From an uncultured Oscillospiraceae bacterium (GTDB lineage: Bacteria; Bacillota; Clostridia; Oscillospirales; Oscillospiraceae), in contig CAKTBC010000002.1 in assembly GCA_934533005.1 (NCBI GenBank), forward strand, positions 3,702 to 67,701: a DNA stretch of 64,000 nucleotides, read 5' to 3'. A program made the translations under genes and the position numbers. Shown one piece after another: positions 33,259-61,705 of this stretch (the stretch's first letter is position 1; each line of letters opens with the position of its first letter). Below the pieces are notes generated by a model that was not told the origin of the DNA, did no database searches, and worked only from the letters and a program-made list of their open reading frames with translations.

Positions 33259-33271
33259 AAGGGTCGCAACA

Positions 33272-34285: not shown

Positions 34286-34290
34286 GTGCC

Positions 34291-42757: not shown

Positions 42758-43669
42758 TTAAAACGTTTCGGTTTCCGTGACACACTCGGTTTTAATGCGG
42801 CCGACGAGGTATTGCAGTGCATCAACCGTATGCGGGCGGATATCGCCGCCGATAAGGATGTACATGATGTCGTCGCCCACGGAGAGCTTGCCCTCATTGA
42901 GCCATGCGCGCACATAGTACACGCCCTCCAGCTTGTACGTATCGGCGATCGCGGCTTCGACCTTTTCGCGGTCATACGAAAACACCATGCCGGAGACCGG
43001 CGCTGCGGACGTATCACCCTCGCGTGCAAGCGCTCTCGCTGTGGCACGCACAACACCGTTGTGCGTCAGGTACATGCCGATCTTTTCTGCCGACGGGTCT
43101 TTTTTCGCCTCGCGCAGCCACTCGTCCATGGAGGGGGCTTTTTTCCCGTGGTGATGATGGTGCTCGTGCCCAATCGGCACGCCGCAGTCGGCCGAGCCGC
43201 TGCCAAGCAGCATCTGCACGCCGTGGGCGATGGGTTCGAGCACGGCCTCGAGGTTTTCCTTGGCCGCCTTCTCGCTGCCGGGGAGGTTGACGATGAGCGT
43301 CCGGCCGCGGATACCGGCTTCGGCGCGGGATAGGCAGCCTCTCGGCGTAATCTTGAAGCTCTCGGCGCGCATGGCCTCCGGAATGCCCGGCGTGCACCGT
43401 TCCACGATCTCCAGCGTGGCCTCGGGCGTGATGTCGCGTGGGGAGAAGCCCGTACCGCCGGTCGTGAGCACGAGAGAGAGCTTCAATTCATCGGCGCATT
43501 TGACAAGTTCGGCTTTGATCTGTTCCCGCTCGTCGGGGACGATGACGGTATAGCGCACGTCGTAGCCGTGCTCTTTCAGCATGAAGACGAGGCGCGGCCC
43601 GCTCGTATCGACGCGCTCGCCGCGCGCTCCCTTGTCGCTTACGGTGATGACTGCTGCGGTATAACCCAT
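42758..43669 (-). CDS. Fusion protein: MogA/MoaB molybdopterin-binding domain + His-rich linker + MoaE-like domain (tentative)
   Basis: N-terminal VITVSDKGARGERVDTSGP...LVLTTGGTGFSPRD...NLPGSEKA (MogA/MoaB). Linker GHEHHHHHGKK. The C-terminal roughly 130 aa resemble the MoaE layout (THNGVVR...VGDDIMYILIGGDIRPH...LVGRIKTE). Confidence 0.7.
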   Translation of the reverse strand: MGYTAAVITVSDKGARGERVDTSGPRLVFMLKEHGYDVRYTVIVPDEREQIKAELVKCADELKLSLVLTTGGTGFSPRDITPEATLEIVERCTPGIPEAMRAESFKITPRGCLSRAEAGIRGRTLIVNLPGSEKAAKENLEAVLEPIAHGVQMLLGSGSADCGVPIGHEHHHHHGKKAPSMDEWLREAKKDPSAEKIGMYLTHNGVVRATARALAREGDTSAAPVSGMVFSYDREKVEAAIADTYKLEGVYYVRAWLNEGKLSVGDDIMYILIGGDIRPHTVDALQYLVGRIKTECVTETETF

Positions 43670-43671
43670 AG

Positions 43672-44643
43672 TTACTCTTCCTTTCTTTCAAAATCTCCGT
43701 GGACGCCACCGCTCTTGCGCAGCAGGCGGATGTCGGAGATCACCATATCCTTTTGTACGGCCTTGCACATATCATACACGGTGAGCGCCGCCGTAGACGC
43801 CGCCGTAAGTGCTTCCATTTCTACCCCGGTGCGGCCATCGCACGATACCGTGGCCTCGATCTCCACGCTGCACCGGCTCTCGTCGAGCCGGAGGGAGAGA
43901 TCGATTCCGTCGAGCAGGATCGGGTGGCACATTGGGATGATATCGGGCGTGCGCTTGGCCCCCATAACGCCCGCGATCTGCGCCACGGTAAGCACATCGC
44001 CCTTTTTCATGCCGCCGGAGCGGATGAGATGAAATGTCGTCCGATTCACGAGCACGCGCGCTGCGGCGGTCGCGGTGCGGCGGCTCTCCGGCTTTTCGCC
44101 GACATTGACCATTTTGGCGCGGCCTTCGTCGTTGAAGTGCGTAAAATCCTTTGGTTTTTCCATGATCGTGTTCTCCAGTATGAAATCGGCAATGGCCGGA
44201 ATATCCTCATAGCCGAAGCGGGGCACGGGGCTTTCCACGTCCATGTCGGTGACGATGGCAAGGAAGTGCTCAAGCGGCGCGGTGAAGCCCTTGCCGTTTT
44301 CCTGCCGCGCCACACCGATCTTCGGCAGCTTTTCGTTTTTAAAGCCCTCGATCAAAATGAGATCGACATCGTGTATACCGCCGAGGAGCTGAGAGAGCGG
44401 ATGCTCGCCGAGCGCAACGCACGCTGTCTTATCCGCAGAGGTCACCACAGTAATGTCCGCGCCCGCGTGGGTAAACCGCCAGGAGTCCTTCCCCTCGTGG
44501 TCGATCTCAAACTGGTGGCCATCGTGCTTGATGATGGCCAGACGCATGCCGCGCGACTTGATCTCCCGGATGAGCTTTTCCAGCAGCGTTGTCTTGCCCG
44601 AGCCGGAGTACCCGGCAAGCGCCATAATGGGTATGTTTGTCAT
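43672..44643 (-). CDS. Fusion protein: MobB (P-loop) + MoaC cyclic pyranopterin monophosphate synthase
   Basis: N-terminal GYSGSGKTTLLEKLI...IKHDGH (MobB). C-terminal TVAQIAGVMGAKRTPDIIPMCHP...GVEMEALTAASTAALTVYDMCKA (MoaC). Confidence 0.88.
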   Translation of the reverse strand: MTNIPIMALAGYSGSGKTTLLEKLIREIKSRGMRLAIIKHDGHQFEIDHEGKDSWRFTHAGADITVVTSADKTACVALGEHPLSQLLGGIHDVDLILIEGFKNEKLPKIGVARQENGKGFTAPLEHFLAIVTDMDVESPVPRFGYEDIPAIADFILENTIMEKPKDFTHFNDEGRAKMVNVGEKPESRRTATAAARVLVNRTTFHLIRSGGMKKGDVLTVAQIAGVMGAKRTPDIIPMCHPILLDGIDLSLRLDESRCSVEIEATVSCDGRTGVEMEALTAASTAALTVYDMCKAVQKDMVISDIRLLRKSGGVHGDFERKEE

Positions 44644-44644
44644 T

Positions 44645-45598
44645 TCACCCTCCGATCTCGTTCATGCTGCGCCCGGCGTGGCTGCGTTCCGCGGCTGAGA
44701 GCGGGTCATGGCACGCGGGCTTTGCGAGAATGACCTCACGCATCACGCGACGCATGCCGTCTTCGTCGAGCCCCTTGATGGGATACTCCTGATCCGAGTG
44801 CAGGCACGGTTTGAGCTTTCCGTCCGATGTGAGCCGGATACGGTTGCAGGCGGCGCAGAAATGGCGGCTCACCGCACGGATGAGGCCGATGTTTCCCTGC
44901 GCACCGGGGAGCCGGTAGAGCTTTGCCACTCTGTCGTCCTGCACGGTTTCCGTGAGCTGCGGCAGCGCTTTGAGCACCGCGTCCCCGGAAACATAGGCGT
45001 TTGCACCGAACTCCTCGCTCTCCGTCATCGGCATGAGCTCAATGAAGCGCACGTCCATGGGATAGTACCGCGTCAGCTCTGCCAGCGCGGGGATCTCGTC
45101 ATCGTTGAAGCCGCCGATGAGCACGGCGTTAACCTTCAAATGCTCAAACCCGGCGTCATACGCCGATTGAATGCCGCGCAGCGCCGATTCGAGCGTGCCG
45201 CGGCGCGTGATATAGGCATACTTTTCGGCATTAAGCGTATCGAGACTGATGTTGAGCCGCTGCACGCCCGCCGCACGCAGAGGTTTGGCAAGTTCCGGGA
45301 GAAGGGTGCCGTTTGTCGTGACGCATACCTCACGGATGCCGGGCACGGCGGCGCATTTCTCACACAGGGAGAGGATGTTCTTTTTTACCAACGGCTCGCC
45401 GCCGGTGATGCGCAGCTTATCGATGCCGAGCGAGGCCGCGGCGCGCACCGCGCTCACCATTTCCTCCTCCGTCAACATTTCGTCATGGCGCTTTGGACAT
45501 ACGCCCTCCTCCGGCATGCAGTACCGGCAGCGCAGATTGCACTTATCCGTTACCGAAAGGCGGAGATAATGAATGTTTCTTCCATAGCTGTCGATCAT
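44645..45598 (-). CDS. moaA: GTP 3',8-cyclase (radical SAM)
   Basis: YLRLSVTDKCNLRCRYCMP radical-SAM cluster motif, ITGGEPL, and C-terminal cluster CAACNRIRLTSDGKLKPCL. Confidence 0.92.
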   Translation of the reverse strand: MIDSYGRNIHYLRLSVTDKCNLRCRYCMPEEGVCPKRHDEMLTEEEMVSAVRAAASLGIDKLRITGGEPLVKKNILSLCEKCAAVPGIREVCVTTNGTLLPELAKPLRAAGVQRLNISLDTLNAEKYAYITRRGTLESALRGIQSAYDAGFEHLKVNAVLIGGFNDDEIPALAELTRYYPMDVRFIELMPMTESEEFGANAYVSGDAVLKALPQLTETVQDDRVAKLYRLPGAQGNIGLIRAVSRHFCAACNRIRLTSDGKLKPCLHSDQEYPIKGLDEDGMRRVMREVILAKPACHDPLSAAERSHAGRSMNEIGG

Positions 45599-45599
45599 A

Positions 45600-46814
45600 T
45601 CAGAGAAGGAATCCTTTCAGCTTTGTTCCGGCGCTGACCGGACCGCTCCCGCCGGGAACGATCGCCATTACATCGCAGCCGACAGCGCTTGAGAGCACGA
45701 CGTTGCCCTGGTCGCCGCTGAGCTCGATAAACGCCTCACCGCCGCGGATGCGGAGCTTTCCGCGTAGAAAGCGCGTCACCGGGCTTCTCTTTTTAAAGTC
45801 ATCCGCGAGCGTCACGGTGATCTCCTCCGGCACACAGTCCGTAAGGCCGGCCATTTTTCGGAGCACCGGCACGACCACGCCGTAATACGTTGTGAGCGAG
45901 GAGACCGGGTTGCCGGAGAGCGAGAGAATGAGCTTTCCCTCCCGCACGGCCAGCGCTGACGCCATACCAGGCTTCATGGCAAGACCGCGTACAAGCACTT
46001 CCGCACCAAGGCTTTCGATGGCATCGGGCGTGAGATCGTAGTCGCCCGCCGAAACACCGCCGGTGGACACGATGGCATCGCACGTACTCAGTCCCTTCGC
46101 GATCGCCGCGGCGATGCCCTCCGTACCGTCCGGCACAATGCCGAGATATTCGGTATCGCAGCCGAGAGAGCGCATGGCGGCAATGAGCGTATAGGCGTTT
46201 GAGTTGCGGATCTTTCCCGCGCCGGGTGTCTCATCCGCCTCCACGAGCTCGGTGCCGGTAGAGAGAACGGCGATGCGGGGCTTTTTGTAAACGAGCGGCT
46301 CGGTCACGCCCTGCGCCGCGAGAGAACCGGCCAGTGCAGCGTCAATACGCTCTCCCGCCGAAACAAGCAGCGTGCCGGCCCGGATGTCCTCTCCGGCGCG
46401 GATGACGTTGTCGCCCAGGCGCACGGGCGCGAAAAGCGTGACGGATGTTTCGGTAAATTCCGTTTTTTCAAACATGATGACCGTGTCCGCTCCATCGGGA
46501 ATCGGCGCGCCGGTCATAACACGGCTGGCCGTTCCGGCGGTGACGGGCTGCGTTGGCGCGCTCCCGGCCGGGATCTCTTCGAGCACGCGCAGCGTTACGG
46601 GCGCTTCGCGCGAGGCGTCCTTCACATCTGCGGCACGAAGAGCATAGCCGTCGTAGGGTGAGCGGTCAAACGCCGGAACGTTCTCCGCGGCGTACAGCTC
46701 CTGCGCGAGGACGCGCCCGGCGCCCTCCTCGAGCGGCACACGCTCCGTCTCCCCAGGGCAGACAAGCGACAGCAGCAGGTCGCGCGCTTCTTCATATCTC
46801 GGTCGTTTCAGCAT
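45600..46814 (-). CDS. moeA: Molybdopterin molybdenumtransferase
   Basis: Four-domain MoeA layout: PAFDRSPYDGYA, VLSTGTELV, STGGVSAGDYD, and a C-terminal beta domain. Confidence 0.9.
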   Translation of the reverse strand: MLKRPRYEEARDLLLSLVCPGETERVPLEEGAGRVLAQELYAAENVPAFDRSPYDGYALRAADVKDASREAPVTLRVLEEIPAGSAPTQPVTAGTASRVMTGAPIPDGADTVIMFEKTEFTETSVTLFAPVRLGDNVIRAGEDIRAGTLLVSAGERIDAALAGSLAAQGVTEPLVYKKPRIAVLSTGTELVEADETPGAGKIRNSNAYTLIAAMRSLGCDTEYLGIVPDGTEGIAAAIAKGLSTCDAIVSTGGVSAGDYDLTPDAIESLGAEVLVRGLAMKPGMASALAVREGKLILSLSGNPVSSLTTYYGVVVPVLRKMAGLTDCVPEEITVTLADDFKKRSPVTRFLRGKLRIRGGEAFIELSGDQGNVVLSSAVGCDVMAIVPGGSGPVSAGTKLKGFLL

Positions 46815-46884: not shown

Positions 46885-47043
46885 TATGCATACCACAGGG
46901 TCATGCGCGCGGCATGCCCCGAAAGTTCGTCGTCTCCTTCTCAAACACGGAAAGTCGTGCCGTTTCCGGCAGGGCTCTGTCCCGCTTGCGCGGGGACGGC
47001 CGCAGGCCATAGCTTTCGCCTTAGGCTGTACGGCTTGGAAACT
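46885..47043 (-). promoter_or_regulatory. Candidate molybdenum cofactor (Moco) riboswitch
   Basis: Minus-strand leader: TTCCAAGCC, then a hairpin carrying an 11-nt tetraloop-receptor motif (CCTAAG..GAAA..TATGG), a GCAA-capped hairpin, a GAAA-capped hairpin and GAGAAGGAG. It sits between a promoter and a terminator in front of moeA-moaA. Similarity to the Moco motif is recalled from memory, not computed. Confidence 0.5.
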
Positions 47044-47061
47044 TTTTGTTTTATGATATTT

Positions 47062-47159: not shown

Positions 47160-47200
47160 AAAAAAGCCCCGGCAGCACGGGATTTCCGTGCATGCTGGGG
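47160..47200 (-). terminator. Rho-independent terminator ending the nine-gene molybdoenzyme operon
   Basis: Imperfect GC-rich stem ccccagcatgcacgg/ccgtgctgccgggg followed by T6 on the minus strand, 7 nt after the mobA stop. Confidence 0.7.
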
Positions 47201-47206
47201 TCTTTC

Positions 47207-47809
47207 TTATCTTTTCTCCTCGGAGGGATCGCCGAGCGCTTCCTGTTCAAGAAAGCGCGCATACGCCTCCGGCGTATTGAGGTTGGCAAGGATAACGTTC
47301 AGATCCCATTCTTTCAGGTCATCCTCGCTGAAATAGTGGACGTTCATCCGCTCAAACACGCTGCGGAAGGAGCGGCACTCGCTCTCGAGCGCTGCCTTCA
47401 CCTGCGGCAGACACCGCCGGTGGAACACACCGAACATCGGCTCGAGCCGCCCGTCAGCACGCCGGATGATGCTCGCGTCGTATTCCCCCAGCCCGTAATA
47501 CAGGGCGCGGGCCAGTTCGGGATCGCCGTTCGGCATATCGGTGGCGGTGAAAAACGCGGCATTCTCGTCTGTCTGGGTGAACGCGGAGTAGAGGCCGTTG
47601 AGCGGCCCCTTTCCCGGATACGCATCCGGGAGTTCCAGATAGCCGCCGCAGTCAAACCGCCCGGGACGATCCACGGAAAACGCCACAGGGCCGAGGCAGG
47701 CATAGCACTTTGCCAGCTTCAGACTCATCGTTTCGTTCCCCACCGGCAGAAGCGCCTTGTCGCGCCCCATGCGCCGGCTCTGTCCTCCGGTCAGAATGAC
47801 GGTCAGCAT
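47207..47809 (-). CDS. mobA: Molybdenum cofactor guanylyltransferase
   Basis: LTGGQSRRMGRDKALL N-terminal motif, GPLNGLYSA, and TDMP. ATG is 3 nt after the upstream stop. Confidence 0.88.
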   Translation of the reverse strand: MLTVILTGGQSRRMGRDKALLPVGNETMSLKLAKCYACLGPVAFSVDRPGRFDCGGYLELPDAYPGKGPLNGLYSAFTQTDENAAFFTATDMPNGDPELARALYYGLGEYDASIIRRADGRLEPMFGVFHRRCLPQVKAALESECRSFRSVFERMNVHYFSEDDLKEWDLNVILANLNTPEAYARFLEQEALGDPSEEKR

Positions 47810-47812
47810 TGC

Positions 47813-48799
47813 TTATCCCTCCATGACGAATCTCTGTCCGATACCCTTTTCGAGCGCGCGGCGGTACACAATCTCCGCGCAGTTCACGTCATGCGCGCCC
47901 ATGCCCATATGCGTGGAAACGATGATCTCGCTCTCCGACTCGCGGCCGGGGACCTTCCCGGTGAGAAGTTCCGTCATATCACCGAACACATAGTCGTTCT
48001 TCACGAATCCCGTGGGGTTCAGGTGCGGGCTGTTGATGATGTCCTGATCCGGGCGGCGGTAGCCGAGATACCACTTGTCTGCCGTCTTGCAGAGCGCCGG
48101 CTCGATATCCCGGAAGCCCTCGATACCAATGACGGTCGTGCCGGGCTTGACCATGTCGACCTTGAGCAGCGGCTCATGCGCGCCGGAGGCCATGAGGATC
48201 AGGCGGCTGTCTTCCACGGCCTGCGCGGGCGTATCGCAGATCACGACCTCGGCACGGCCTTCATATTGCTTGCGCACTTCCTCCATCGGCGCACGGCTGC
48301 GGTTATAGAGCCGCACCTGCCGGATGGACGGGAACTGCGTCAGGAAGCCGCGGATGCCGGCTCTCGCCTGCAGGCCGCATCCCATAACAGTGAGCACCTC
48401 GGGGTCGGGGTTCGTAAGGTGCTTTGCCTGCACGACGCCGTGCCCGCCTGCGGTGCGCATGGCGGTGATGCTCGTCCCACCGACCAGGGCGATCGGCGAG
48501 CCGGTGGTGGTGTCGCTCAGGAGAATGCTCGTGCCGTGGCAGAACGTATACCCCGGCAGCGGCGCGGAAAACGTGCTGATCCATTTCACACCGGCCACAT
48601 GCTTGAAGTGCAGCACCGCAGGCATGGAGTGGAAGTTATTCTTTCTTGTCTCGTCCGTGAACATCAGCGACATATTGCCGACGGTGATATCGCCGGTGCC
48701 GATGCGGTAAAAGGTCTCCTCCGCCGCGGCAATGGCGTCCTCCACCGAGAGGAGTTCCCGGACATTTTCTTCGCTCAGGAGCAGAAGCTCTTCATGCAT
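47813..48799 (-). CDS. Ornithine cyclodeaminase / mu-crystallin family protein
   Basis: Family layout: TAMRTAGGHGVVQAKHL, Rossmann VMGCGLQARAGI, and MVKPGTTVIGIEGF. Confidence 0.8.
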   Translation of the reverse strand: MHEELLLLSEENVRELLSVEDAIAAAEETFYRIGTGDITVGNMSLMFTDETRKNNFHSMPAVLHFKHVAGVKWISTFSAPLPGYTFCHGTSILLSDTTTGSPIALVGGTSITAMRTAGGHGVVQAKHLTNPDPEVLTVMGCGLQARAGIRGFLTQFPSIRQVRLYNRSRAPMEEVRKQYEGRAEVVICDTPAQAVEDSRLILMASGAHEPLLKVDMVKPGTTVIGIEGFRDIEPALCKTADKWYLGYRRPDQDIINSPHLNPTGFVKNDYVFGDMTELLTGKVPGRESESEIIVSTHMGMGAHDVNCAEIVYRRALEKGIGQRFVMEG

Positions 48800-48903
48800 G
48801 TTTTGTTCCTCCGATCCGAATGGGGATGGTGTGCTCTCTCCCCGAGGGGAGAGAGCACGGGGGTAAGAAGAAAGAGAGAGGATAGCTGACTATGTAAATT
48901 TTA

Positions 48904-49431
48904 TCAGCGCTTTTTGCGGAGATTAAGCTTATCGATCAGCACGTTGCAGGCTTTATCGCTGCCGCTGGCGATATATTCTTCCTCCGTTACGCAGTCCAGC
49001 GCGCCGAAGGAGCACGCACGAACACATGCGGGCTTCAGCCCGGCCTTTACGCGCTCGTTGCACCCATCGCACTTTTCCATTTTTCCGTCGGACTTGCGGT
49101 AGCGCGGCGCGCCGAACGGGCACGCCATCGCGCAGCTCTTGCAGCCGATGCAGTTGGTGTTGTCGTACACAGTGAAGCCCGTCTCCGGGTCCTTGCTGAT
49201 GCAGCCCACCGGGCATGCCGGGATGCAGGGCGCATCCACGCAGTGCATGCATGCCGTGGAGAGATACGCAAAATACGTGCTGCCGTCCGCAAGAGGTACT
49301 TCCGTGTCGAACGTCTGGCGGAAGCAGAGATCCCCGGCTTCGATGTCCGTGTCGTTCTGGTCGAGGCAGCCCATCATGCAGGCCGAGCAGGCGGAGCACT
49401 TGTTCTCGTCAAATACAAAAATGTGTTTCAT
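48904..49431 (-). CDS. 4Fe-4S dicluster-domain electron-transfer subunit (DmsB/PsrB/NrfC-like, four Cys groups)
   Basis: CSACSACMMGC, CMHCVDAPCIPACP, CIGCKSCAMACP, CDGCNERV...CVRAC. ATG is 1 nt after the catalytic-subunit stop. Confidence 0.88.
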   Translation of the reverse strand: MKHIFVFDENKCSACSACMMGCLDQNDTDIEAGDLCFRQTFDTEVPLADGSTYFAYLSTACMHCVDAPCIPACPVGCISKDPETGFTVYDNTNCIGCKSCAMACPFGAPRYRKSDGKMEKCDGCNERVKAGLKPACVRACSFGALDCVTEEEYIASGSDKACNVLIDKLNLRKKR

Positions 49432-49432
49432 A

Positions 49433-51583
49433 TCACTTGCCCTCCACTTTGCGGATGTTGCAGCGTAGGCCCTTGAACCCGGGGAAGCCGGAGTACGGGT
49501 CAACGTGGTTCTCGCCGACGAGCTCGTTGACGTTCGCCTCGGTGTAGCCATGGATGGCCAGCAGCACACCGGGCTTCGCAAGGGCGCTCACCTTGACGCG
49601 CATGCGGATCTCGCCGTGCGGACTGGACATGGCGACCCAGTCGCCGTTCTTAAGACCGAGACGCTTGGCATCCTCGTTGTGCACCTCCACGGTCGGGTCG
49701 GGCTGCAGCGAGCGCAGCCATGGCACCTCATGCGTGCGGGAGTGGAGCGCATGTGGGCGGCGCGCGCCGGTGCAGAGATAGAACGGGTATTTGGCTTTCG
49801 TTTCGGGATCGTTCTCATCGGAGAGCGGATCGGTATAGCTCGGCAGCGGATCGAGCCGCGGGTCGATCTGCGCGATGGTGTTCGAGTAGAATTCAAACTT
49901 GCCGGACGGGGTATTGAAGCCGTTGGCAAGCACTTTGCCCGCCTGCGCCGGCCACTTGGCGGTGGGCACCTTCACGGGCAGAGAGCTCTTCTTGAGGTCT
50001 GCCACGGTAAGGCCGCAGCCGTCGATGATCCAGTCGCAGCAGGCCTCGTAGCCCTGCTGCAGCAGATCGTCGTCGAGATTGAGAGCTTTTATCATGCCGT
50101 ACATGATATCGGTATCGGACTTGGAATCATACAGCGGCTCAATGACCGGCTGTGTGAACGTGAGGAAGCCGCCCTGATACGCCTTCATCTCCCCGCGCTC
50201 GAGCGACGAGCACGCGGGCAGGACAAGATCGGCGTACTTGGCCGACCATGTCATGAACATATCCGTGTCGACATAGAAGTCCAGGTTATCTGCCATAGCC
50301 TTGAGCAGGTGTTCCGACTGCGGCAGCATCTTGGCGTTCAGGCCGAAGGCAACCATGCCCTTGAGCGGATACGGCGTGCCTTCTTCGAGCTGACGAATGA
50401 GATCGACAGCCTGGAACTCATCATAGAGTGCGTTCCACAGCGGGAACTTCTCCGCACCGATGCGTTCGGGAGCGTCCTTCGGGTAGCGGTCCGAGCGGAA
50501 CTGATGCTCGCGCGTCGGGAATCCGGCGGGCTTGTGGATGTACGAGGCCGGGTTTGGCACGTTGCCGCCGGCGCGGTCAAAGTTGCCGGTCAGCGCTGAC
50601 AGGCACACGATGGCGCGGTGGGTGTTGAAGCCGTTGATGTGGTGCACGAGCGCAGACGAGGAGTGGTTCGTGCACGCCGGGCCGTTCGTGGCATAAAGCT
50701 TCGTGGCTTCGAAAATGAGATCCGGATCGAGACCGGTGATCTCCGCGACTTTTTCGAGCGGATACTGGTCGACGAGCTCTTTGTATTTATCAAAGCCGAA
50801 CGTGTACTTCTCGACGTACTCCTTATCCATCCAGCCGTTGTCGATGATAAGCTTGCCCATGCCGAGCGCGAGAGCGCCGTCCGTGCCGGGGTTGATCTTG
50901 AGGAAAATGTCTGCAAGGTTCTTCGTGGCAGGCGTATCGCGGATGTCGATGATGATGACCTTGCCGCCGCGCTTTTTGAGCGCCTGCACGCCGCCGACGG
51001 ACAGGTGGTTGGAGTAGTAGCCGTCATAGTTCCAGCCAAGGTATGTGCTGGCGTGCCCCATATCCGGGCCGGCGCTGGTACCGGCGGTCGTCTTATTGGC
51101 GAGCATCATGGACGTCATGCAGGTGCTGTCGTCAGTGGCAAAGTTCACGCTGCCGAACACGTGCGCCATGCGGTGCAGGATCGGGCGGTACCACTTGGCG
51201 TAGCCGCTGAAGAACATGACGGAGCTCGCGCCGTACTTTTCGCGGATCTTCAGCAGGTTCTCCGCGATCATGTCGAATGCTTCGTCCCAGCTGATGGGCT
51301 CAAACTTGCCCTCTCCGCGCTCGCCGACGCGCTTGAGCGGCGTCTTGAGGCGGTCGGCACGATACACGTAGTTTCGCAGCGCCGAGCCCTTCGTGCAGAG
51401 CTTGCCGCGGTTGAACGGATGCTCCGGCGTTCCTTCGATGCGGATGATCTTTCCGTCCTTTACATAGCAGTCCACGCCGCAGTGCAGGCCGGGGCTGCAG
51501 ATCGCGCACAGAGAGCGCTTTATTTCGATGCCGGTGTCCTCGCCCGGGATCTTGGCTTTTATTTTCTTTTCCAGTTCAGTCAA
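49433..51583 (-). CDS. Molybdopterin (bis-MGD) oxidoreductase catalytic subunit, DMSO-reductase superfamily, cytoplasmic
   Basis: 716 aa. N-terminal Fe-S Cys cluster CAICSPGLHCGVDC...KLCTKG, followed by MGD-binding domains and a C-terminal beta-barrel domain (VEVHNEDAKRLGLKNGDWV). No twin-arginine signal. TTG start 7 nt after AGGAGGG. Confidence 0.85.
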   Translation of the reverse strand: MTELEKKIKAKIPGEDTGIEIKRSLCAICSPGLHCGVDCYVKDGKIIRIEGTPEHPFNRGKLCTKGSALRNYVYRADRLKTPLKRVGERGEGKFEPISWDEAFDMIAENLLKIREKYGASSVMFFSGYAKWYRPILHRMAHVFGSVNFATDDSTCMTSMMLANKTTAGTSAGPDMGHASTYLGWNYDGYYSNHLSVGGVQALKKRGGKVIIIDIRDTPATKNLADIFLKINPGTDGALALGMGKLIIDNGWMDKEYVEKYTFGFDKYKELVDQYPLEKVAEITGLDPDLIFEATKLYATNGPACTNHSSSALVHHINGFNTHRAIVCLSALTGNFDRAGGNVPNPASYIHKPAGFPTREHQFRSDRYPKDAPERIGAEKFPLWNALYDEFQAVDLIRQLEEGTPYPLKGMVAFGLNAKMLPQSEHLLKAMADNLDFYVDTDMFMTWSAKYADLVLPACSSLERGEMKAYQGGFLTFTQPVIEPLYDSKSDTDIMYGMIKALNLDDDLLQQGYEACCDWIIDGCGLTVADLKKSSLPVKVPTAKWPAQAGKVLANGFNTPSGKFEFYSNTIAQIDPRLDPLPSYTDPLSDENDPETKAKYPFYLCTGARRPHALHSRTHEVPWLRSLQPDPTVEVHNEDAKRLGLKNGDWVAMSSPHGEIRMRVKVSALAKPGVLLAIHGYTEANVNELVGENHVDPYSGFPGFKGLRCNIRKVEGK

Positions 51584-52853
51584 GGTTCAGCCCTCCTAAG
51601 AATTTAATGAAGCTGTCTGGGAAGCCCCTCCACTTGAGATAGCAGACGGACTTGAGATCCAGACCCGCGTCCTTATTCTCTATCGCCTTTATAAACGCGC
51701 TTTTCAGTATGCCGTTGCTCTCGGCCGAGCCGATCACGTTCAGGCACTTGATCGCGTCCGCATCCCGGACGCCGCGGATATACAGGTGCTCATCCTCATA
51801 CTCATAGAGCTCATCCGTATCCTTACAGATGCTCACGTCGCCGATGCTGAAGAAATCGTAGTGCAGGTAATGCGCGAGACTCAGCGACACATTCGCGCCG
51901 AAGCGCGCATCGCCGCCGGTCATGCAGTTGCCCGCCACGCGCCCCTGCTGCATCGAGTTGAGCCAGAGCGCCAGATTCTTCACGGTGCGGTTTTGCGTTT
52001 CAAAGGCATCGCAGCAGTCGCCCGCGCCATAAATGCCGGGGTAATTCGACTCCATGTGCTCGTTGACGGTCACGCCCTTGCCGACAGCAATGTCCGTTCC
52101 CTTCAGGAACGCAAGATTTGGCCGCACGCCGCTCGTGACGGCGATAAGATCGGCCGTATACCGCTCGCCGGTGTTCGCCACCGCGACAAGCCGCCCGTCC
52201 TCCGAGCGCTCGATATGGTCGAGCGTCCGGCCGAACGCGAGATGCACGCCTTTCTTTTCGAGATCGGCCTGCACGCGCTCCGCCGTCTGCGGGAAGAGCG
52301 CTTTGGAGAATGCCTGACGGCTGCGGTTCATAAGAGTGCAGTCCACGCCCGCCTCCACGAAATCCTCCACGACCTTGATGCCGCTCCACGACGCGCCAAA
52401 CACGAGACCCGCGTGTACCTTTCCACTCGAGAGCGCTTCCTTGAGCTGCACGGCATCGTCCACGGTGCGCATGGTGAATACGCCCGGCAGCTCTGCCCCC
52501 TCGAGCTGCGGCTTTACCGCCGATGCGCCGGTGCTGATGAGAATGGCGTCGTACTGCGCCTCGCTCCCGTCCGACAGACGCACCGTCTTCGCCGCGGGGT
52601 CAAGTCCCGTGACCGGCGTGTGCGGATGTACGATCAGGTTCAGCTCATTTTTTACTTCCTCCAGAGAGCCGAACGGGAACAGGGCGTCATACGGGATCGT
52701 TCCCTTGACGTAATATGTTGTCAGCATCGGGTTGTACGGGCCGAAATCCGTGTCTGAATACACATGGATCTCCGCCTCTGCATCCCGCTGCCGGGCTTCC
52801 TTTGCCGCGCTGTACCCAGCGCCGCCGAAGCCGATGATAGCGATCTTCTTCAT
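51576..52853 (-). CDS. FAD-dependent pyridine nucleotide-disulfide-family oxidoreductase (no redox-active Cys seen)
   Basis: MKKIAIIGFGGAGYSAA (FAD GxGxxG), a second dinucleotide fold LVFGASWSGIKV, and YGAGDCC. The 3' end overlaps the Mo-subunit start by 8 nt. Confidence 0.85.
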   Translation of the reverse strand: MKKIAIIGFGGAGYSAAKEARQRDAEAEIHVYSDTDFGPYNPMLTTYYVKGTIPYDALFPFGSLEEVKNELNLIVHPHTPVTGLDPAAKTVRLSDGSEAQYDAILISTGASAVKPQLEGAELPGVFTMRTVDDAVQLKEALSSGKVHAGLVFGASWSGIKVVEDFVEAGVDCTLMNRSRQAFSKALFPQTAERVQADLEKKGVHLAFGRTLDHIERSEDGRLVAVANTGERYTADLIAVTSGVRPNLAFLKGTDIAVGKGVTVNEHMESNYPGIYGAGDCCDAFETQNRTVKNLALWLNSMQQGRVAGNCMTGGDARFGANVSLSLAHYLHYDFFSIGDVSICKDTDELYEYEDEHLYIRGVRDADAIKCLNVIGSAESNGILKSAFIKAIENKDAGLDLKSVCYLKWRGFPDSFIKFLGGLNLD

Positions 52854-52972
52854 ATTATCCTTAAATCCTCCCGTTGTAAAGGCCGGACAGACGATGCTTG
52901 CCGCGCCCGTCCGGGTCGTACCGAAAGCCAGGGATAAAGCAAATGCTGTATCCCTGGCTGCCGTATTTTGCG

Positions 52973-55923: not shown

Positions 55924-56640
55924 TCAAATGGTAAAGAGTTTCCCGAGATTGGGAAGCTTGTCGTTTACGCCGGAGTGGCGCAGGCACGCCCAGAGGCTGG
56001 CTTGATGGCTCGTGATGACCGGCATGCCGAGATCGTCCTCGAGCGCCGGGATGAGCTCCATCGTGCCGAGACCCATGCAGCTGAGGAAGAACACCTCCGC
56101 GCCGGTCGTATCCAGCTTCATCGCGTTGCGGTAAAGGTGCCGCTTGCTCGCGTGGCCGAACTCGCCGACCTTGTTGAAGCCGATGCCGGTGATGGACGTT
56201 ACCTCGATGCCGTTGTCCTCGAGGAACTTCTTCTCCGCCTGGTTCGTGTCCTCCGGGTACGGCGTCATGACGACGGTCTTCTTGAGACCGAGCGCTTCAA
56301 AGGCCTCGAGCACCGCAGTGCTCGTCGTAAGGCCGGGACAGCCGCTCGCCCGCTCGATGCGCTCGATGCATTCCTTGTCAAAGCCGTAGCCCTTGATGCA
56401 GCTGCCGGACGTGCAGCCGAAGAGAATGACGTCGTGCGGGCTCTTGCGGTACATCTTCGCCGCTTCCTCGAGCTGATCCGAGAGAAACACCAGTCCCTCC
56501 GGCGTCGGGCCGGGGAACCAGAGGCGGGTGCTGTCGAAGGACACGCCCTCCGGGGCGTATTTGTTGAAAGCATATTCGACCTTGTCGTCGATCGGCGCGA
56601 TCACGCCGATCCTTGCTCTCCAACCGTAGTAGTTTTCCAT
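55924..56640 (-). CDS. Asp/Glu/hydantoin racemase superfamily protein (maleate isomerase / arylmalonate decarboxylase-like), paralog 1
   Basis: YGWRARIGVIAP, a two-Cys pattern FGCTSGS and FLSCMGL, and PVITSHQA. Confidence 0.75.
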   Translation of the reverse strand: MENYYGWRARIGVIAPIDDKVEYAFNKYAPEGVSFDSTRLWFPGPTPEGLVFLSDQLEEAAKMYRKSPHDVILFGCTSGSCIKGYGFDKECIERIERASGCPGLTTSTAVLEAFEALGLKKTVVMTPYPEDTNQAEKKFLEDNGIEVTSITGIGFNKVGEFGHASKRHLYRNAMKLDTTGAEVFFLSCMGLGTMELIPALEDDLGMPVITSHQASLWACLRHSGVNDKLPNLGKLFTI

Positions 56641-56667: not shown

Positions 56668-57390
56668 TTACAGGGTGAACAGCTTGCCGAGCTTCGGCAT
56701 CTTCGTGCCGATCCGGCAGTGCCGCAGCGCACTCCAGAGCGTCGCCTGATGACTGGTGATCACGGGGATGCCCATGTTCTTTTCCAGATCATCGATGATC
56801 TCCATCGTGGTCAGACCCATGCAGCTCAGGAAAAAGGTATCCGCACCCTTCAGATCCATGCGAGTGGCGTTCCGATACAGGAAAACCTCGTCCGCATCCT
56901 CAAAGCTCAGTCCGTCGGCGCGGCTGAACGGGCTCATGTCCATGCCGACGATGTTCGTCACTTCAAAGCCATTGTCCTCAAGGAATTTCTTCTCGGCCTC
57001 GTTCGTCGCCTCAGGATAGGGCGTGAGGACGGCCACCTTTTTGGTGCCCAGCGCACGGAGGCCTTCCAGCACGGCGGTGCTCGTCGTGAGGCCGGGGATA
57101 CCGGAGGCGCGCTCGATCTGGTTGATGCACTCCTGATCCCAGCCGACACCCTTGATGCAGCTGCCGGACGTGCAGCCAAACACCACGAGCTGGTACGGCA
57201 TGCCCTTATATTTGGCCGCCGTCTCTTCGAGCTGGTCGGTAAGAATGGTCAGTCCCTCGGGCGTCGGGCCGGGAAAGTTGATCTTCATGGATGCAAAGGA
57301 TACGCCTTCCGGCGCATAGAGGTGAAACGCGTGCTCGGCATTCTCGCTCATGGGAGTGATCAGGCCGATCTTTGCTCTCCAACCATACAT
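56668..57390 (-). CDS. Asp/Glu/hydantoin racemase superfamily protein (maleate isomerase-like), paralog 2
   Basis: YGWRAKIGLITP, FGCTSGS, FLSCMGL, PVITSHQA. Roughly 60% identical by eye to paralog 1. Confidence 0.75.
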   Translation of the reverse strand: MYGWRAKIGLITPMSENAEHAFHLYAPEGVSFASMKINFPGPTPEGLTILTDQLEETAAKYKGMPYQLVVFGCTSGSCIKGVGWDQECINQIERASGIPGLTTSTAVLEGLRALGTKKVAVLTPYPEATNEAEKKFLEDNGFEVTNIVGMDMSPFSRADGLSFEDADEVFLYRNATRMDLKGADTFFLSCMGLTTMEIIDDLEKNMGIPVITSHQATLWSALRHCRIGTKMPKLGKLFTL

Positions 57391-57844: not shown

Positions 57845-59350
57845 ATGAAAGGGATGTTCACTCAAATGGAAAAGATTTCTGCTTCCGTTCCCGCGAAGAG
57901 AAAGGGCTACACGCCCATGCAGTGGGTCCACATGGTCATCACGCTGGCGCTCATGTTCCTCTTCGGCTACCTTCCCCCGTTCGCGACCGTCACCCCGCTC
58001 GGCATGAAGCTGCTCGGCGTCTTCATCGGCGTCATTTACGGCTACTCCGCCTGCGGCGACATCATCTGGCCGTCTCTGTTCGCGATCATCGCGTTCGGCA
58101 TCAGCGGCTACTCCAGCATGGCGCAGGTCATCACCAACGGCCTCGGCCATAACGTCGTGTTCCAGAGCATCGTCGGCTTCGTGGCCGCCGGTTCCCTCTC
58201 CTACTACGGCTTCGGCAAGTGGTTCGTCCGCTGGTCTCTCTCCAAGCCCATCTTCAAGAAGAGCCCGATGCTCTATGTCTGGGCCTTCTTCGTGATCTTC
58301 GGTCTGTCCTGCGTCGTCGTCAACCAGATCGTCCTCTCCCTGATCCTCTACGGCATCTGGAACGACATCGCCGACAACTGCGGCTACGATGAGAAGAGCG
58401 GCTTCCGCTACGTCGGCTTCGGCGGCGTTATGCTCAGCACCGTGCTCGGCGGCGGCATGATCCCCTACCAGAGCTGGATGCTCGGCCTGGCGAACAATTG
58501 GTCCGCCTCTACCGGTACACAGCTGAACATGGGCGTCATGGCCTGCATCACTATCCCCACGACCGTCCTCATCATCACGGCTTACGTTTTCACCTCCAAG
58601 TGGCTATTCAAGATCGACTACAGCAAGATGCAGCGCTTCGATGAGACCAAGCTCGGCGAGGACAGCAAGGTCATGCGTCCCCGCGTCAAGCGCATCCTCA
58701 TCGTCTACTGCCTGACCGTTATCATCTGCATCCTCGGCAACACCCTCATCGGCTCCAAGCTCGCCACGCTCGTCAACCAGACCATCACGGTCGCCGGCTG
58801 CTACTGCATCTGCGCCGCCATCCTGCTCGTCCTTCCGAGCGGCGAAGGCGACGGACAGCCCTGCATCGTATTCAAGGAAGTCAAGAACACCGCCATCAGC
58901 TGGGAAGTCATTCTCATGTGCGCCGTGACGCTGCCGCTCTCGAGCGCCGTTACGAGCGAGGGCACCGGCGTTGTTCCCTGGATCAGCGGCGTGTTCGCCC
59001 CGATCTTCGCCGGAAAGGGTCCCGGCTTCATTCTTGTGTTCACGATCATCGTTTCCATGATCCTCACCAACCTCGGCTCGAACATCGCGTTCGGCTCGGC
59101 TCTGATCCCCATTATTGCTCCGTTCACCGTTGCCGCCGGCATGAACCCGACGCTCGCGGGCGCCGCTCTGATCTACATGGTCAACGTCGGCCTGATCCTC
59201 CCCGGCGCTTCCGCTCCTGCGGCCATCTTCCACTCCCAGCCGACGCTGCCCAACGGCGGCATGCGCATCAAGACGGCCTCGGTCGGCGCACTCTCTGTTC
59301 TTATTGTCGGCATCCCGGTGTTCCTGCTCATCAACCTGCTCGTCCACTGA
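57845..59350 (+). CDS. Ion-transporter-superfamily permease (CitMHS/DASS/ArsB-like anion transporter), substrate unknown
   Basis: 501 aa, about 12-14 TM segments with two-fold internal organisation. Divergent from the nine-gene operon. The exact start is uncertain (alternatives at 57854 and 57866). Confidence 0.6.
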   Translation: MKGMFTQMEKISASVPAKRKGYTPMQWVHMVITLALMFLFGYLPPFATVTPLGMKLLGVFIGVIYGYSACGDIIWPSLFAIIAFGISGYSSMAQVITNGLGHNVVFQSIVGFVAAGSLSYYGFGKWFVRWSLSKPIFKKSPMLYVWAFFVIFGLSCVVVNQIVLSLILYGIWNDIADNCGYDEKSGFRYVGFGGVMLSTVLGGGMIPYQSWMLGLANNWSASTGTQLNMGVMACITIPTTVLIITAYVFTSKWLFKIDYSKMQRFDETKLGEDSKVMRPRVKRILIVYCLTVIICILGNTLIGSKLATLVNQTITVAGCYCICAAILLVLPSGEGDGQPCIVFKEVKNTAISWEVILMCAVTLPLSSAVTSEGTGVVPWISGVFAPIFAGKGPGFILVFTIIVSMILTNLGSNIAFGSALIPIIAPFTVAAGMNPTLAGAALIYMVNVGLILPGASAPAAIFHSQPTLPNGGMRIKTASVGALSVLIVGIPVFLLINLLVH

Positions 59351-59514: not shown

Positions 59515-60585
59515 ATGGTTCGTAAAATTACCGTTATCGGCGCCGGTTCCACCGGCCACGCCGTTGCTTCCGTTATGTCCCAGCGCGGCTTTGAAGTCAC
59601 CTTCCACGACGACGAGCGCTTCGCTTCCCGCTTCCAGGATATTGAAGAGCTCGGCGGCATCACGCTGCGCGGCGGCATGCACGGCACGGGCAAGCCCGTG
59701 TGCATGACCACCGACCCCGAAAAGGCTGTCCGCGGAGCGGAAGTCATTTTCGTCCACGTCATGGCCGACCGCCACGAGGAGATTGCCCGCCGCATCGCCC
59801 CTTATGTGGAAGACGGCCAGCACATCCTCATCATCCCCGGCAACCTCGCCTCCTTCGTGTTCCGCAAGGTTTTCGACGAGATGGGCGTTACCGCCAAGGT
59901 CACCCTGACCGAGAAGGAAGGCAACTTCTGCCCCTGCCGTCTGACCGGCAAGGCCGAAGTCACGACCGGCATGCCTCTGAATCTCAAGGGCAAGGTTGCT
60001 TCCCTCCCCACCTCCGATACCGCGCGCGTGCTCAAGGATCTTGAGGGCGTCGTGGAATACACCGCCAACCGCAACGTCTTTGAAGGCGTCATCAACGCAG
60101 GCAACGTCATCAACCACATCGCGAGCACCGTTCTCTCCGCCGCGGAGATCGACCACAAGGGTCATGACTACTCCCTCTTCCAGTATGCCTTCACGCCGCG
60201 CGTTGTGCACTGCGTCGGCAAGATCCGCGAGGAGCGCAAGGCCGTTATCGAGGCCATGGGCATGACCGAGCACGGCAACCCGATGGGCATGATCGAAAAG
60301 GTGCAGCATCTCGACGAGCATCCCGAAGTTCACATCTTCTACAAGTACATGGACGGCCCCTTCGCGCTTGACCACCGCTATCTCCACGAGGACTGCGGCT
60401 GCGGCGGCGCGTTCGCCCTGTCCGTTGCGGAGCACCTCGGCATGGATATGCCGGTGCTGCGCTCCTTCCTCGGCGTAGCCGGAGCGATCAACGACCGCGA
60501 TTATATCCACGGCGGCCGCACGCTGGAGAATCTCGGCTTCCCGAAGGACATGCCGCTCGAAGAGATCTACAAGGCTATTGAATGA
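59515..60585 (+). CDS. NAD(P)-dependent octopine/nopaline (opine) dehydrogenase-family oxidoreductase
   Basis: N-terminal Rossmann KITVIGAGSTGHAVASVM. The central and C-terminal helical domain has NVINHIAS and DHRYLHEDCGCG motifs typical of the family. Own TGcTATAAT -10 box at about 59490. Confidence 0.7.
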   Translation: MVRKITVIGAGSTGHAVASVMSQRGFEVTFHDDERFASRFQDIEELGGITLRGGMHGTGKPVCMTTDPEKAVRGAEVIFVHVMADRHEEIARRIAPYVEDGQHILIIPGNLASFVFRKVFDEMGVTAKVTLTEKEGNFCPCRLTGKAEVTTGMPLNLKGKVASLPTSDTARVLKDLEGVVEYTANRNVFEGVINAGNVINHIASTVLSAAEIDHKGHDYSLFQYAFTPRVVHCVGKIREERKAVIEAMGMTEHGNPMGMIEKVQHLDEHPEVHIFYKYMDGPFALDHRYLHEDCGCGGAFALSVAEHLGMDMPVLRSFLGVAGAINDRDYIHGGRTLENLGFPKDMPLEEIYKAIE

Positions 60586-60677: not shown

Positions 60678-60739
60678 TCGGCTATTTGAACGTAATCATT
60701 CTCATCGGAGAATAATAGAAAGAAAAGAGTGTGACGCTC

Positions 60740-61705
60740 ATGCAGTTGGAGTACTTCCCCTACATTCTGGAGATCGGCCGGCAGAAATCCGTTTCTGCCG
60801 CGGCGAAGGCTTTAAACCTTCGCCAGACGACGCTTAGCTCCATTCTCAGCTCGGTGGAAGAGGAGGTCGGCTTTTCCATTTTCTGCCGCACTCCGAACGG
60901 CATGGTGCCCACGATCCTCGGCGAGCAGTTTCTCGATGCGCTGCGCGACATCAACGTGCAGGCGGAGCTGCTCTACAGCCTTACGACACACGAGAGCGTT
61001 CATGCGCAGCCGGTGCATATCGTCGTCACGCCGGCGACCGGCGCGGGCGTTGCGCTCGAGCTTACACAGCGTTTTCACGCTTACGAGCTCAAATGCGATC
61101 TCTTTTTCGAGGAGCAGCCGCGTCCGGCGGCGCTGCCGATGATATTGCAGGGCAACGCAAATATCTGTCTTTTCTATGTCTCCGACAGTGAGATCAACGA
61201 GCTTCGGCAGGAGCTGGAGGAAAAGGGTCTGCATATCACGCCGCTGCTCGCTACGGAGTTCTGCGGCATCGTAACGCGCGACCATCCGCTCGCTAAGCTT
61301 GATGTGCTGCAAAAGGAGAATCTTTCCGCCTCCCCCATCATCACCGCCACCGGCTTTTTCTCCGGCGGCGCGCGCTTTGCCCGCTGGGCCTCGCAGCATT
61401 GCCAGATCACATCCGTTCCGAATTTCTATCTTCTCCGGTCGGTCATGGAGCAGGAAAACATGCTCGGCATCGGCACAGCTTTTACGTTTGCCGCCGCAAA
61501 GATCTACGATCCGGCGCGCCACAAGCTGCTTCACTTCTCCGAAGACCTTTTCTCTCCGCAGATGCACTATTGTCTTATACAGCGTGATGAATCCTATCTC
61601 CGATATCCGGAGAAGATCATGACCAACGAGATCCTGGACTATTTCCGCACGTTTTCCGCCGAGGAATACGGCGGACAGTTCATCGGCAAGGGGGAGGGCG
61701 CATGA
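60740..61705 (+). CDS. LysR-family transcriptional regulator 1
   Basis: MQLEYFPYILEIGRQKSVSAAAKALNLRQTTLSSILSSVEEEVG HTH plus a substrate-binding domain. A GTG at 60731 is an alternative start. Confidence 0.85.
   Translation: MQLEYFPYILEIGRQKSVSAAAKALNLRQTTLSSILSSVEEEVGFSIFCRTPNGMVPTILGEQFLDALRDINVQAELLYSLTTHESVHAQPVHIVVTPATGAGVALELTQRFHAYELKCDLFFEEQPRPAALPMILQGNANICLFYVSDSEINELRQELEEKGLHITPLLATEFCGIVTRDHPLAKLDVLQKENLSASPIITATGFFSGGARFARWASQHCQITSVPNFYLLRSVMEQENMLGIGTAFTFAAAKIYDPARHKLLHFSEDLFSPQMHYCLIQRDESYLRYPEKIMTNEILDYFRTFSAEEYGGQFIGKGEGA

Follow-up and report, generated by a model that had tools for sequence, protein, structure and literature searches.

How does a molybdenum or tungsten enzyme obtain its electrons, and what does it act on, when it is encoded with neither an export leader nor a membrane anchor? 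The question is raised by three adjacent genes of an uncultured Oscillospiraceae bacterium (GenBank assembly GCA_934533005.1, contig CAKTBC010000002.1), which occupy positions 48,904 to 52,853 of a 64,000-nucleotide stretch (the window, to which all coordinates refer) and encode a flavoprotein binding flavin adenine dinucleotide (FAD), a catalytic subunit of the bis-molybdopterin guanine dinucleotide (bis-MGD) class (hereafter the Mo subunit) and a small iron-sulfur (Fe-S) protein. Following up an initial annotation of this trio, we find that the genes establish a leaderless, anchorless and predictably cytoplasmic enzyme of three subunits, and that the trio is conserved and coupled, naturally fused in places, built with a partner pair like AorC and AorA, and provided with a dedicated cofactor supply. 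The most probable reading, which we hold with moderate confidence, is a soluble, cytoplasmic, heterotrimeric oxidoreductase that is linked to the nicotinamide nucleotides NAD(P)H and works reductively on an imported imino- or polycarboxylic acid.

A coupled gene trio for a leaderless enzyme

The gene junctions, read directly in the DNA, bear out the translational coupling that the initial annotation had proposed. The FAD and Mo genes overlap by 8 nt (TTGACTGA), with AGGAGG placed 8 nt 5' of the TTG start codon of the latter, and the ATG of the Fe-S gene stands one base past the Mo stop codon and is preceded by GGAGG (see Table 1 for the genes themselves). The identical 8-nt overlap recurs in homologues from Enterocloster and Flavonifractor. 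Two further features were seen ahead of the trio: an intercistronic hairpin without a T-run (CAGCCAGGGATA...TATCCCTGGCT; 52926-52960, minus strand) lies between the stop codon of the second PrpD-like gene and the ribosome-binding site of the FAD gene, and a promoter-like hexamer pair (52880-52852) overlaps the FAD gene start.

The TTG codon is the most upstream ATG, GTG or TTG following the in-frame stop, and more than 100 homologues of the Mo subunit share both its length (~717 aa) and its N-terminus, which together exclude a longer leader. No twin-arginine (RR) motif or hydrophobic segment turned up when all three proteins were scanned, and the only membrane protein encoded at the locus is a permease with ~12 transmembrane segments. 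The claim that the Mo subunit lacks a leader for twin-arginine translocation (Tat) therefore stands, also when the start codon is reconsidered. The source assembly measures 2.1 Mb and is 83% complete; TatC, NrfD and DmsC were not found in it, and control genomes responded as expected. Absence from an incomplete genome is not proof, yet it agrees with the evidence from the proteins themselves, and it fits the earlier statement that no PsrC-, DmsC- or NrfD-type subunit is encoded nearby. Nor did a conserved anchor appear among the annotated conserved neighbour clusters, the related loci not having been scanned with NrfD or DmsC models.

Close homologues of the Mo subunit (66-96% identity) are common in metagenomes, and the named ones belong to Oscillibacter, Dysosmobacter, Flavonifractor, Pseudoflavonifractor and Enterocloster. 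A profile-guided scan with one genome per species yielded 80 loci (47-96% identity), 75 of them with enough flanking sequence; they come from Oscillospiraceae, Lachnospiraceae and a few termite-gut and other anaerobes, and one genome can hold several paralogues, as Enterocloster aldenensis does with three. In a sample of 300 genomes from the same order, matches at E ≤ 1e-150 turned up in 7 of the 18 that belong to the window's family; the other families sampled gave none. The Fe-S gene directly follows the Mo gene on its 3' side in 66 of the 75 flanked loci, most of the remainder being ordered Mo-FAD-FeS, and a FAD homologue lies within 6 kb in 70. Natural fusions also exist: P0123 (857 aa) and P0126 (841 aa), both at 43-47% identity, carry the Fe-S part at the Mo C-terminus, in alignment columns 745-910. 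Taken together, gene coupling, co-occurrence and fusions suggest that the three subunits would form a physical complex.

The catalytic subunit and its electron module

The Mo subunit is a member of the dimethyl sulfoxide (DMSO) reductase superfamily, with Molybdop_Fe4S4, Molybdopterin and Molydop_binding domains all above the Pfam cut-offs. Its FS0 cluster is predicted to be held by Cys26, Cys29, Cys35 and Cys63 and its metal by Cys155; among 31 family members and outgroups, Cys35, Cys63 and Cys155 are invariant and Cys26 and Cys29 nearly so. The cysteine motif singled out initially, CAICSPGLHCGVDC, is thus right in its first three residues (Cys26, Cys29 and Cys35), which are conserved along with Cys63, but not in Cys39, which is not conserved. 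A HMMER alignment, the suggested route to the metal-coordinating residue, places Cys155 on the ligand Cys of acetylene hydratase and of PsrA. In the same alignment the CQSC-D segment of acetylene hydratase meets CAIC-SPGLH, so that the position of Asp13 is taken by Ser30. The residue after Cys155 is Met156, where formate dehydrogenases have His.

An AlphaFold model built on 31 sequences (pLDDT 91.4, pTM 0.91) found its best fold match in acetylene hydratase 2E7Z (Foldseek; TM-scores 0.86/0.85, root-mean-square deviation 2.9 Å, 27% identity), followed by PsrA (0.83), ArrA, Fdh and Nap, and all of the top 50 matches belong to the DMSO reductase superfamily. Ranking by sequence against the PDB gave acetylene hydratase 2E7Z (1.1e-70), PsrA 2VPW (3.8e-64), formate dehydrogenases (1e-53 and weaker), NapA (1e-37) and DMSO reductases (1e-33). 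The curated NCBIfam equivalog level was reached by none of the three proteins: for the Mo subunit the top match, Fdh-alpha (TIGR01591), scored 302 bits against a cut-off of 666, PhsA 275 against 694, NasC (NF047855) 204 against 1100, and the NapA models 145 against 904-930. Judged by the NasC score, the Mo subunit is no orthologue of a known Mo enzyme that depends on NAD(P)H. Phylogenetic placement, which had also been called for, put 56 family members in one clade with 100% SH-aLRT support in a maximum-likelihood tree of 63 sequences, separate from acetylene hydratase, PsrA and relatives from Eggerthellaceae and Sporomusa; the tree comes from a quick search with long outgroup branches flagged and serves for family monophyly only. 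These comparisons establish the placement of the family, with a predicted acetylene-hydratase-like fold and a putative Cys ligand, and without the Asp of the hydratase.

Acetylene hydratase of Pelobacter acetylenicus is likewise cytoplasmic and leaderless, with ~720 aa, an N-terminal [4Fe-4S] cluster and a Cys metal ligand. It differs in being a stand-alone, non-redox tungsten hydratase whose catalytic Asp13 comes right after the second FS0 Cys (CxxCD), whereas the window family has FAD and Fe-S partners and a conserved 20-residue N-terminal extension and is separate on the tree. This family-specific extension, M..E..KAKIPGE(D/E)TGIE.K, precedes the FS0 domain (residues 1-22; 51520-51583, minus strand); its Lys11, Ile12, Pro13, Gly18 and Ile19 are nearly invariant, and it is modelled as a helix and a strand with pLDDT ~90. 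It sits where a Tat leader would, without the RR, and may serve the partner subunits as a docking site. As a separate matter, neither selenocysteine nor an in-frame TGA was found in the window protein or the homologues examined: a "1 TGA" in two relatives lies 5' of the start codon, and the other in-frame stops are genuine stop codons.

The FAD protein matched Pyr_redox_2 (4.9e-45) and Pyr_redox in Pfam. As the initial annotation had noticed, it lacks the redox-active Cys of the NADH oxidase (Nox)/CoA-disulfide reductase (CoADR) branch; that position holds PYNPMLTTYY, with no Cys, and the segment is conserved in 71 homologues. Its top PDB match is AorC (8c0z_E, 2.8e-34), residues 4-326 of 425 aligning with 3-323 of 424, and Met43, conserved in the family, aligns with Met42 of AorC. 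The 8C0Z structure is AorABC, the NAD-linked tungsten aldehyde oxidoreductase of Aromatoleum aromaticum, where AorC, which binds FAD and NAD, contacts the four-cluster AorA, and Met42 contacts both the FAD and cluster cysteines (bioRxiv 10.1101/2023.01.23.525143). Through AorA the wire continues to FS0 and to the tungsten cofactor in AorB, all distances being below 15 Å, so that the chain runs FAD - FS4..FS1 - FS0 - W-pterin with NAD as the acceptor (bioRxiv 10.1101/2023.01.23.525143). The Fe-S protein of the window has four Cys groups (three CxxCxxCxxxC and one CxxC...CxxxC) and matched Fer4_11 (2.2e-23); the DmsB model gave 126 bits, under its cut-off, and the PDB matches were ArrB, FdnH, PsrB and, at 3.5e-14, AorA (8c0z_C).

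Because the FAD subunit best matches AorC, the Fe-S subunit matches AorA and the two Met residues align, the enzyme looks like an AorA/AorC-type module mounted on a DMSO-reductase-family catalytic subunit in place of an AOR-family one. AorC and the FAD subunit are nearly equal in length and share the conserved Met that in AorC contacts FAD and cluster, and AorA is likewise a four-cluster, ferredoxin-like subunit. The difference lies in AorB, which belongs to the AOR family, with a tungsten bis-pyranopterin, rather than to the DMSO reductase or bis-MGD enzymes; AorAB also assembles into filaments, a habit that the window enzyme may or may not share. Homology of the flavoprotein to AorC, NorW, PadH and rubredoxin reductases points to NAD(P)H as the probable redox partner, and the likely order of carriers is FAD, four [4Fe-4S] clusters, FS0 and Mo or W. 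The proposal of a cytoplasmic path between NAD(P)H and the Mo centre through FAD and Fe-S clusters, in this direction or the reverse, thus gains support from the lack of leaders, transmembrane segments and detectable Tat or anchor genes, from the persistence of the trio in 70 of the 75 loci, from the fusions and from the matches to a solved NAD-linked pterin enzyme.

The initial annotation had likened this logic to NasBC. The likeness holds for the three-component plan of NasBC of Bacillus subtilis and, reportedly, of NarABC of Clostridium perfringens, both cytoplasmic, NADH-dependent nitrate reductases: these, too, combine a soluble FAD protein and Fe-S centres with a bis-MGD subunit that has no leader, and have Moco (Mo/W cofactor) genes nearby. 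It does not extend to the parts, since AorABC is the better analogue of the electron module and the catalytic subunit is nearest to acetylene hydratase, outside the Nas/Nap lineage, with no nitrate or nitrite genes at the locus.

Operon, cofactor supply and related loci

The trio forms the core of a nine-gene, probably catabolic operon, in which two racemase-like and two PrpD-like genes come first and an OCD-family dehydrogenase gene and mobA last (Table 1). A divergent unit encodes the permease, an opine-dehydrogenase-like enzyme and two LysR regulators, and a riboswitch-controlled Moco operon adjoins. The initial annotation had described the trio correctly and missed the two genes that follow it in the same operon, the OCD/mu-crystallin gene and mobA.

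Table 1. Coordinates of the features at the locus, listed along the window from the first operon gene to the Moco operon and then through the divergent unit
Feature	Coordinates	Strand	Evidence and remarks
Asp/Glu-racemase-superfamily protein 1, first operon gene	56668..57390	-	Pfam Amdase 5.9e-34; PDB AMDase, maleate isomerase; Cys73, Cys190
Asp/Glu-racemase-superfamily protein 2 (AMDase/maleate-isomerase/EutA-like)	55924..56640	-	Amdase 5.4e-34; EutA 116 bits, below cut-off
MmgE/PrpD-family protein 1, 459 aa	54502..55881	-	Pfam MmgE_PrpD_N/C; kept beside PrpD2 in type-A loci
MmgE/PrpD-family protein 2 (PrpD2), 490 aa	52973..54445	-	MmgE_PrpD_N/C; PDB cis-aconitate decarboxylase (CAD) 4.9e-23, IDS epimerase 4.6e-13
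FAD subunit, 425 aa	51576..52853	-	ATG 52853, stop TGA 51578-51576; AorC-like, without redox-active Cys
Catalytic bis-MGD Mo/W subunit, 716 aa	49433..51583	-	TTG start 51583, stop TGA 49435-49433; leaderless
Fe-S subunit, 175 aa	48904..49431	-	ATG 49431 to TGA 48904; four [4Fe-4S] motifs, DmsB/AorA type
OCD/mu-crystallin NAD(P) enzyme (SbnB/AlaDH/EutC-like)	47813..48799	-	Pfam OCD_Mu_crystall 3.6e-44; SbnB 140 bits, below cut-off
mobA (molybdenum cofactor guanylyltransferase), last gene of the enzyme operon	47207..47809	-	NCBIfam MobA models 77-100 bits, all below cut-offs
Moco riboswitch upstream of moeA	46918..47052	-	Rfam RF01055, 63.6 bits (gathering score 36), E 2.2e-13
Moco operon: moeA, moaA, mobB-moaC fusion, mogA/moaB-like	42758..46814	-	Pfam MoeA_N/C, Radical_SAM + Mob_synth_C, MobB + MoaC, MoCF_biosynth
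Permease, ~12 transmembrane segments, divergent	57845..59350	+	DctM 1.8e-4, below threshold (ion-transporter superfamily); 12 hydrophobic segments
Opine-dehydrogenase-family NAD(P) enzyme	59515..60585	+	Pfam Octopine_DH 4.4e-19; conserved with the trio
Two overlapping LysR-type regulators	60731-61705, 61702-62652	+	Pfam HTH_1 + LysR_substrate

The cofactor is probably bis-MGD with Mo or W, a view that is supported by the adjoining Moco operon, by the riboswitch, whose family RF01055 does not discriminate Mo from W, and by mobA, whose presence in the operon favours an MGD-type cofactor. The mobA gene lies upstream of the riboswitch and belongs to the enzyme operon, not to the biosynthesis operon; a terminator-like hairpin (47182-47167) follows it on the 3' side, and the riboswitch is itself flanked by a near-consensus promoter-like site (47090-47062) and a terminator-like hairpin (46875-46850). 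In the 83%-complete genome the Mo subunit is the sole PF00384 protein and the only bis-MGD enzyme, apparently the single one that the neighbouring Moco pathway supplies. A plus-strand open reading frame of 565 codons (47192-48889) that overlaps the minus-strand OCD gene and mobA was discarded as a shadow frame with no family match; such frames are typical of high-GC DNA.

The accessory enzymes refine the organic-acid context proposed at first, in that they point to opine- or imino-acid-like polycarboxylates rather than to generic organic acids. The opine-dehydrogenase-like protein found its best PDB match in N-(1-D-carboxyethyl)-L-norvaline dehydrogenase (CENDH, 1BG6; 8.5e-31), both racemase-like proteins have the two Cys residues of catalytic type, in the second within FGCTSGS and LSCMG motifs, and the OCD gene comes after the Fe-S gene in many homologous loci. 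Loci that we term type A carry the gene set of the window. Those of type B (Enterocloster asparagiformis, E. lavalensis, E. hominis and Pseudoflavonifractor) have one PrpD, the opine dehydrogenase, the permease, the trio and sometimes one racemase-like gene, so that the permease accompanies the trio in both; the regulator of type-B loci is CdaR. Between the two types the trio is 51-76% identical, and PrpD and opine dehydrogenase only 30-37%, as one would expect of a Mo-dependent step that is shared and of accessory steps that have adapted to differing side groups. Clades at 53-62% identity have the same accessory families in other gene orders, and subclades of the Mo tree match their catabolic neighbourhoods.

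A sister clade of 20 members (47-50% identity) retains the FAD-Mo-FeS trio (loci L083-L118, for example L089:2000-11600 and L105:5489-6667) among a different set of neighbours: a GntR regulator, a PatB-family C-S lyase (385 bits, above cut-off), an APC amino-acid permease, an EamA transporter and RidA. From this context, the pathway substrate of that clade could be an S-substituted cysteine derivative, possibly a sulfoxide. Elsewhere in the window, an unrelated cluster of the agmatine deiminase type (29077-35229, plus strand) comprises a PAD_porph agmatine deiminase, an amino-acid permease, a Na+/H+ antiporter-family protein, a carbamoyltransferase and a carbamate-kinase-family gene.

Direction, substrate and competing readings

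How might the enzyme work? According to our preferred reading, the AorC-like flavoprotein would exchange hydride with NAD(P)H, single electrons would cross the four [4Fe-4S] clusters of the small subunit, and they would pass from there to FS0 and to the Cys155-ligated Mo- or W-bis-MGD centre. The direction would be reductive, with NAD(P)H driving the removal of an oxygen atom (from an S-oxide, an N-oxide or a C-OH group) from an imported imino- or polycarboxylic acid. The reaction would provide an electron sink to a fermenter without a respiratory chain and would leave a compound that the accessory enzymes can digest. Three considerations lead us to think reduction the likelier direction. The organisms are fermenters, and no Tat or quinol-anchor genes were found, so that a step consuming NAD(P)H would be useful. 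The PatB, RidA and amino-acid permease genes of the sister clade read as a route that reduces an S-substituted cysteine derivative and then cleaves it. Lastly, cytoplasmic bis-MGD reductases of metabolic function, such as BisC, act on S-oxides.

The substrate class is probably of the kind named above, and within it the accessory enzymes point to a secondary amine or an unsaturated polycarboxylate, because they comprise two imine- or opine-type dehydrogenases, proteins like iminodisuccinate (IDS) epimerase and CAD, and two-Cys proteins like racemases or isomerases; we regard this as a lead and not as a result. Candidates weighed from the context, none of which we claim, were opines, iminodisuccinate-like acids, nicotianamine, dipicolinate, aconitate or tricarballylate, hydroxyectoine-like rings, cysteine sulfoxides and cyclic sulfoxide imino acids.

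Several points weigh against this reading. Full-text literature searches found no characterised member of the family and no biochemical datum. As to the direction, AorABC, the best analogue, is physiologically oxidative. Nor is it obvious why the accessory proteins (the two imine-type dehydrogenases and the racemase- and PrpD-like proteins) should require a step catalysed by Mo. Five of the 75 loci have no FAD gene nearby, and some family members may therefore use a donor other than the FAD protein. The flavoprotein may use NADH or NADPH. Instead of the canonical GxGxxG, its second dinucleotide motif reads GASxxG across the family (71 homologues), and N-R-S-R replaces a family Asp: the second Rossmann strand ends in TL(A/V)D in most of 70 homologues, where the acidic residue looks NADH-like, and in TLMNRSR in the window protein (residues ~150-180), which may mark a switch from NADH to NADPH. 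The metal, likewise, may be Mo or W, and ModA (TIGR01256) was not found in the 83%-complete genome.

The most serious competitor keeps the complex and reverses the current. As a water-dependent hydroxylase or dehydrogenase, the enzyme would pass electrons from Mo or W through the Fe-S clusters and FAD to NAD(P)+. AorABC, whose electron module is the closest solved one, does reduce NAD+ while oxidising its substrate, acetylene hydratase, the nearest catalytic relative, adds water to carbon, and Mo/W enzymes of anaerobes are known for oxygen-independent hydroxylation (ethylbenzene dehydrogenase and resorcinol hydroxylase, for example). Yet fermenters of this group usually need electron sinks and not more NAD(P)H, the water-activating Asp13 of acetylene hydratase is replaced by Ser30, and the C-S lyase context of the sister clade better fits a reductive pre-treatment. 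On balance, we consider the oxidative direction unlikely, though worth keeping in mind.

A second alternative takes its cue from PsrA, the runner-up in the PDB sequence ranking, and from the PhsA score: the enzyme might be a cytoplasmic, NAD(P)H-dependent reductase of polysulfide, persulfide or thiosulfate that is related to Psr/Phs and only loosely tied to its neighbours. The PatB-type C-S lyase of the sister clade could feed such an activity, since lyases of this kind can yield persulfides from cystine. PsrABC and PhsABC do have the second-closest catalytic subunit, a Cys ligand and a four-cluster partner of the PsrB type, but they are Tat-exported and rely on a quinol-oxidising anchor of the NrfD type, whereas the window enzyme has no leader and no anchor, belongs to a genome in which TatC was not found, and has a flavoprotein as donor. 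The PhsA score falls far under its cut-off, the family clade lies apart from PsrA, no sulfur-metabolism gene occurs at the window locus, and the trio of this clade is embedded in, and translationally coupled to, genes for carbon-skeleton enzymes across many genera and gene orders. A reductase of sulfur species is thus improbable.

About as improbable is a non-redox hydratase in the manner of acetylene hydratase, in which the sole task of the FAD and Fe-S proteins would be reductive activation, the upkeep of a reduced metal. Among solved relatives acetylene hydratase is the nearest, and it needs a strong reductant for activity. It works without partner subunits, however, and a four-cluster wire and a flavoprotein that are conserved, coupled and sometimes fused would be a large investment for activation alone; with the aligned segment reading S-P-G-L-H and the Asp missing, we rejected this identity.

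Least likely is a nitrate reductase of the NasBC or clostridial NarABC type, or an NAD-linked formate dehydrogenase, both of which we rejected despite the common three-component logic and the top NCBIfam rank of Fdh-alpha, given that the NasC and Fdh-alpha scores lie well below their cut-offs, that NapA and FdhH resemble the Mo subunit less than acetylene hydratase and PsrA do, in sequence and in fold, that Cys155 is followed by Met and not by the formate-dehydrogenase His, and that the locus has no nitrite reductase, nitrate transporter or formate-related genes.

Returning to an NAD(P)H-linked reductase as the preferred reading, how new would such an enzyme be? The three-component FAD/Fe-S/pterin logic has precedents in NasBC and NarABC, and documented ones in AorABC and Ucdh. 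Full-text literature searches found no description of the catalytic lineage, of its pairing with an AorA/AorC-type module or of the conserved catabolic neighbourhoods. Ucdh of Enterocloster shares the logic of a cytoplasmic dehydroxylase running from NADH through FAD and Fe-S to Mo, but its fold is another one, that of the xanthine oxidase (MCD) family. The gut catechol dehydroxylases of Eggerthellaceae (Dadh, Cadh and Hcdh) are likewise diet-directed Mo enzymes of gut anaerobes with many paralogues; they are typically Tat-exported and linked to respiration, while the window enzyme is predicted to be cytoplasmic. Eggerthellaceae relatives in our survey (L024 and L029) are 30-32% identical and fall outside the family clade, a comparison made without characterised dehydroxylase reference sequences.

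It is an evenly balanced proposition, in our judgement, that the trio represents a large family, as yet without description, of bis-MGD enzymes that are cytoplasmic, coupled to NAD(P)H and used in fermentation as electron sinks on oxidised compounds from the diet, and that this clade, with its opine-dehydrogenase-, PrpD- and racemase-like enzymes, defines a new catabolic pathway for imino- or polycarboxylic acids. The carriers include gut and rumen Clostridia such as Oscillibacter, Flavonifractor, Enterocloster, Anaerotruncus, Lawsonibacter, Mediterraneibacter and Faecalibacterium, and the fact that in the present genome a whole riboswitch-controlled Moco pathway appears to exist for a single enzyme suggests that the activity has real physiological weight. 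Known bis-MGD enzymes of the gut that act on dietary or host compounds are for the most part exported, linked to respiration and from Actinobacteria and Proteobacteria. Strictly fermentative Clostridia would have arrived at a distinct and conserved solution, in which an acetylene-hydratase-like Mo/W subunit draws on the NAD(P)H pool through an AorA/AorC-type wire. Clade-specific neighbourhoods, cultured isolates with the locus (among them Oscillibacter sp. PC13, Flavonifractor sp. An306/An92, Enterocloster aldenensis, [Clostridium] asparagiforme DSM 15981 and Anaerotruncus colihominis DSM 17241) and regulators encoded alongside make the search for substrates directly testable. Its success could reveal new routes for diet-derived sulfur or imino-acid compounds and would bring into Mo/W enzymology a novel pairing of a catalytic with an electron-transfer module. 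If our reading is true, these enzymes would be the Firmicute, non-respiratory counterpart of the reductase arsenal of Eggerthella.

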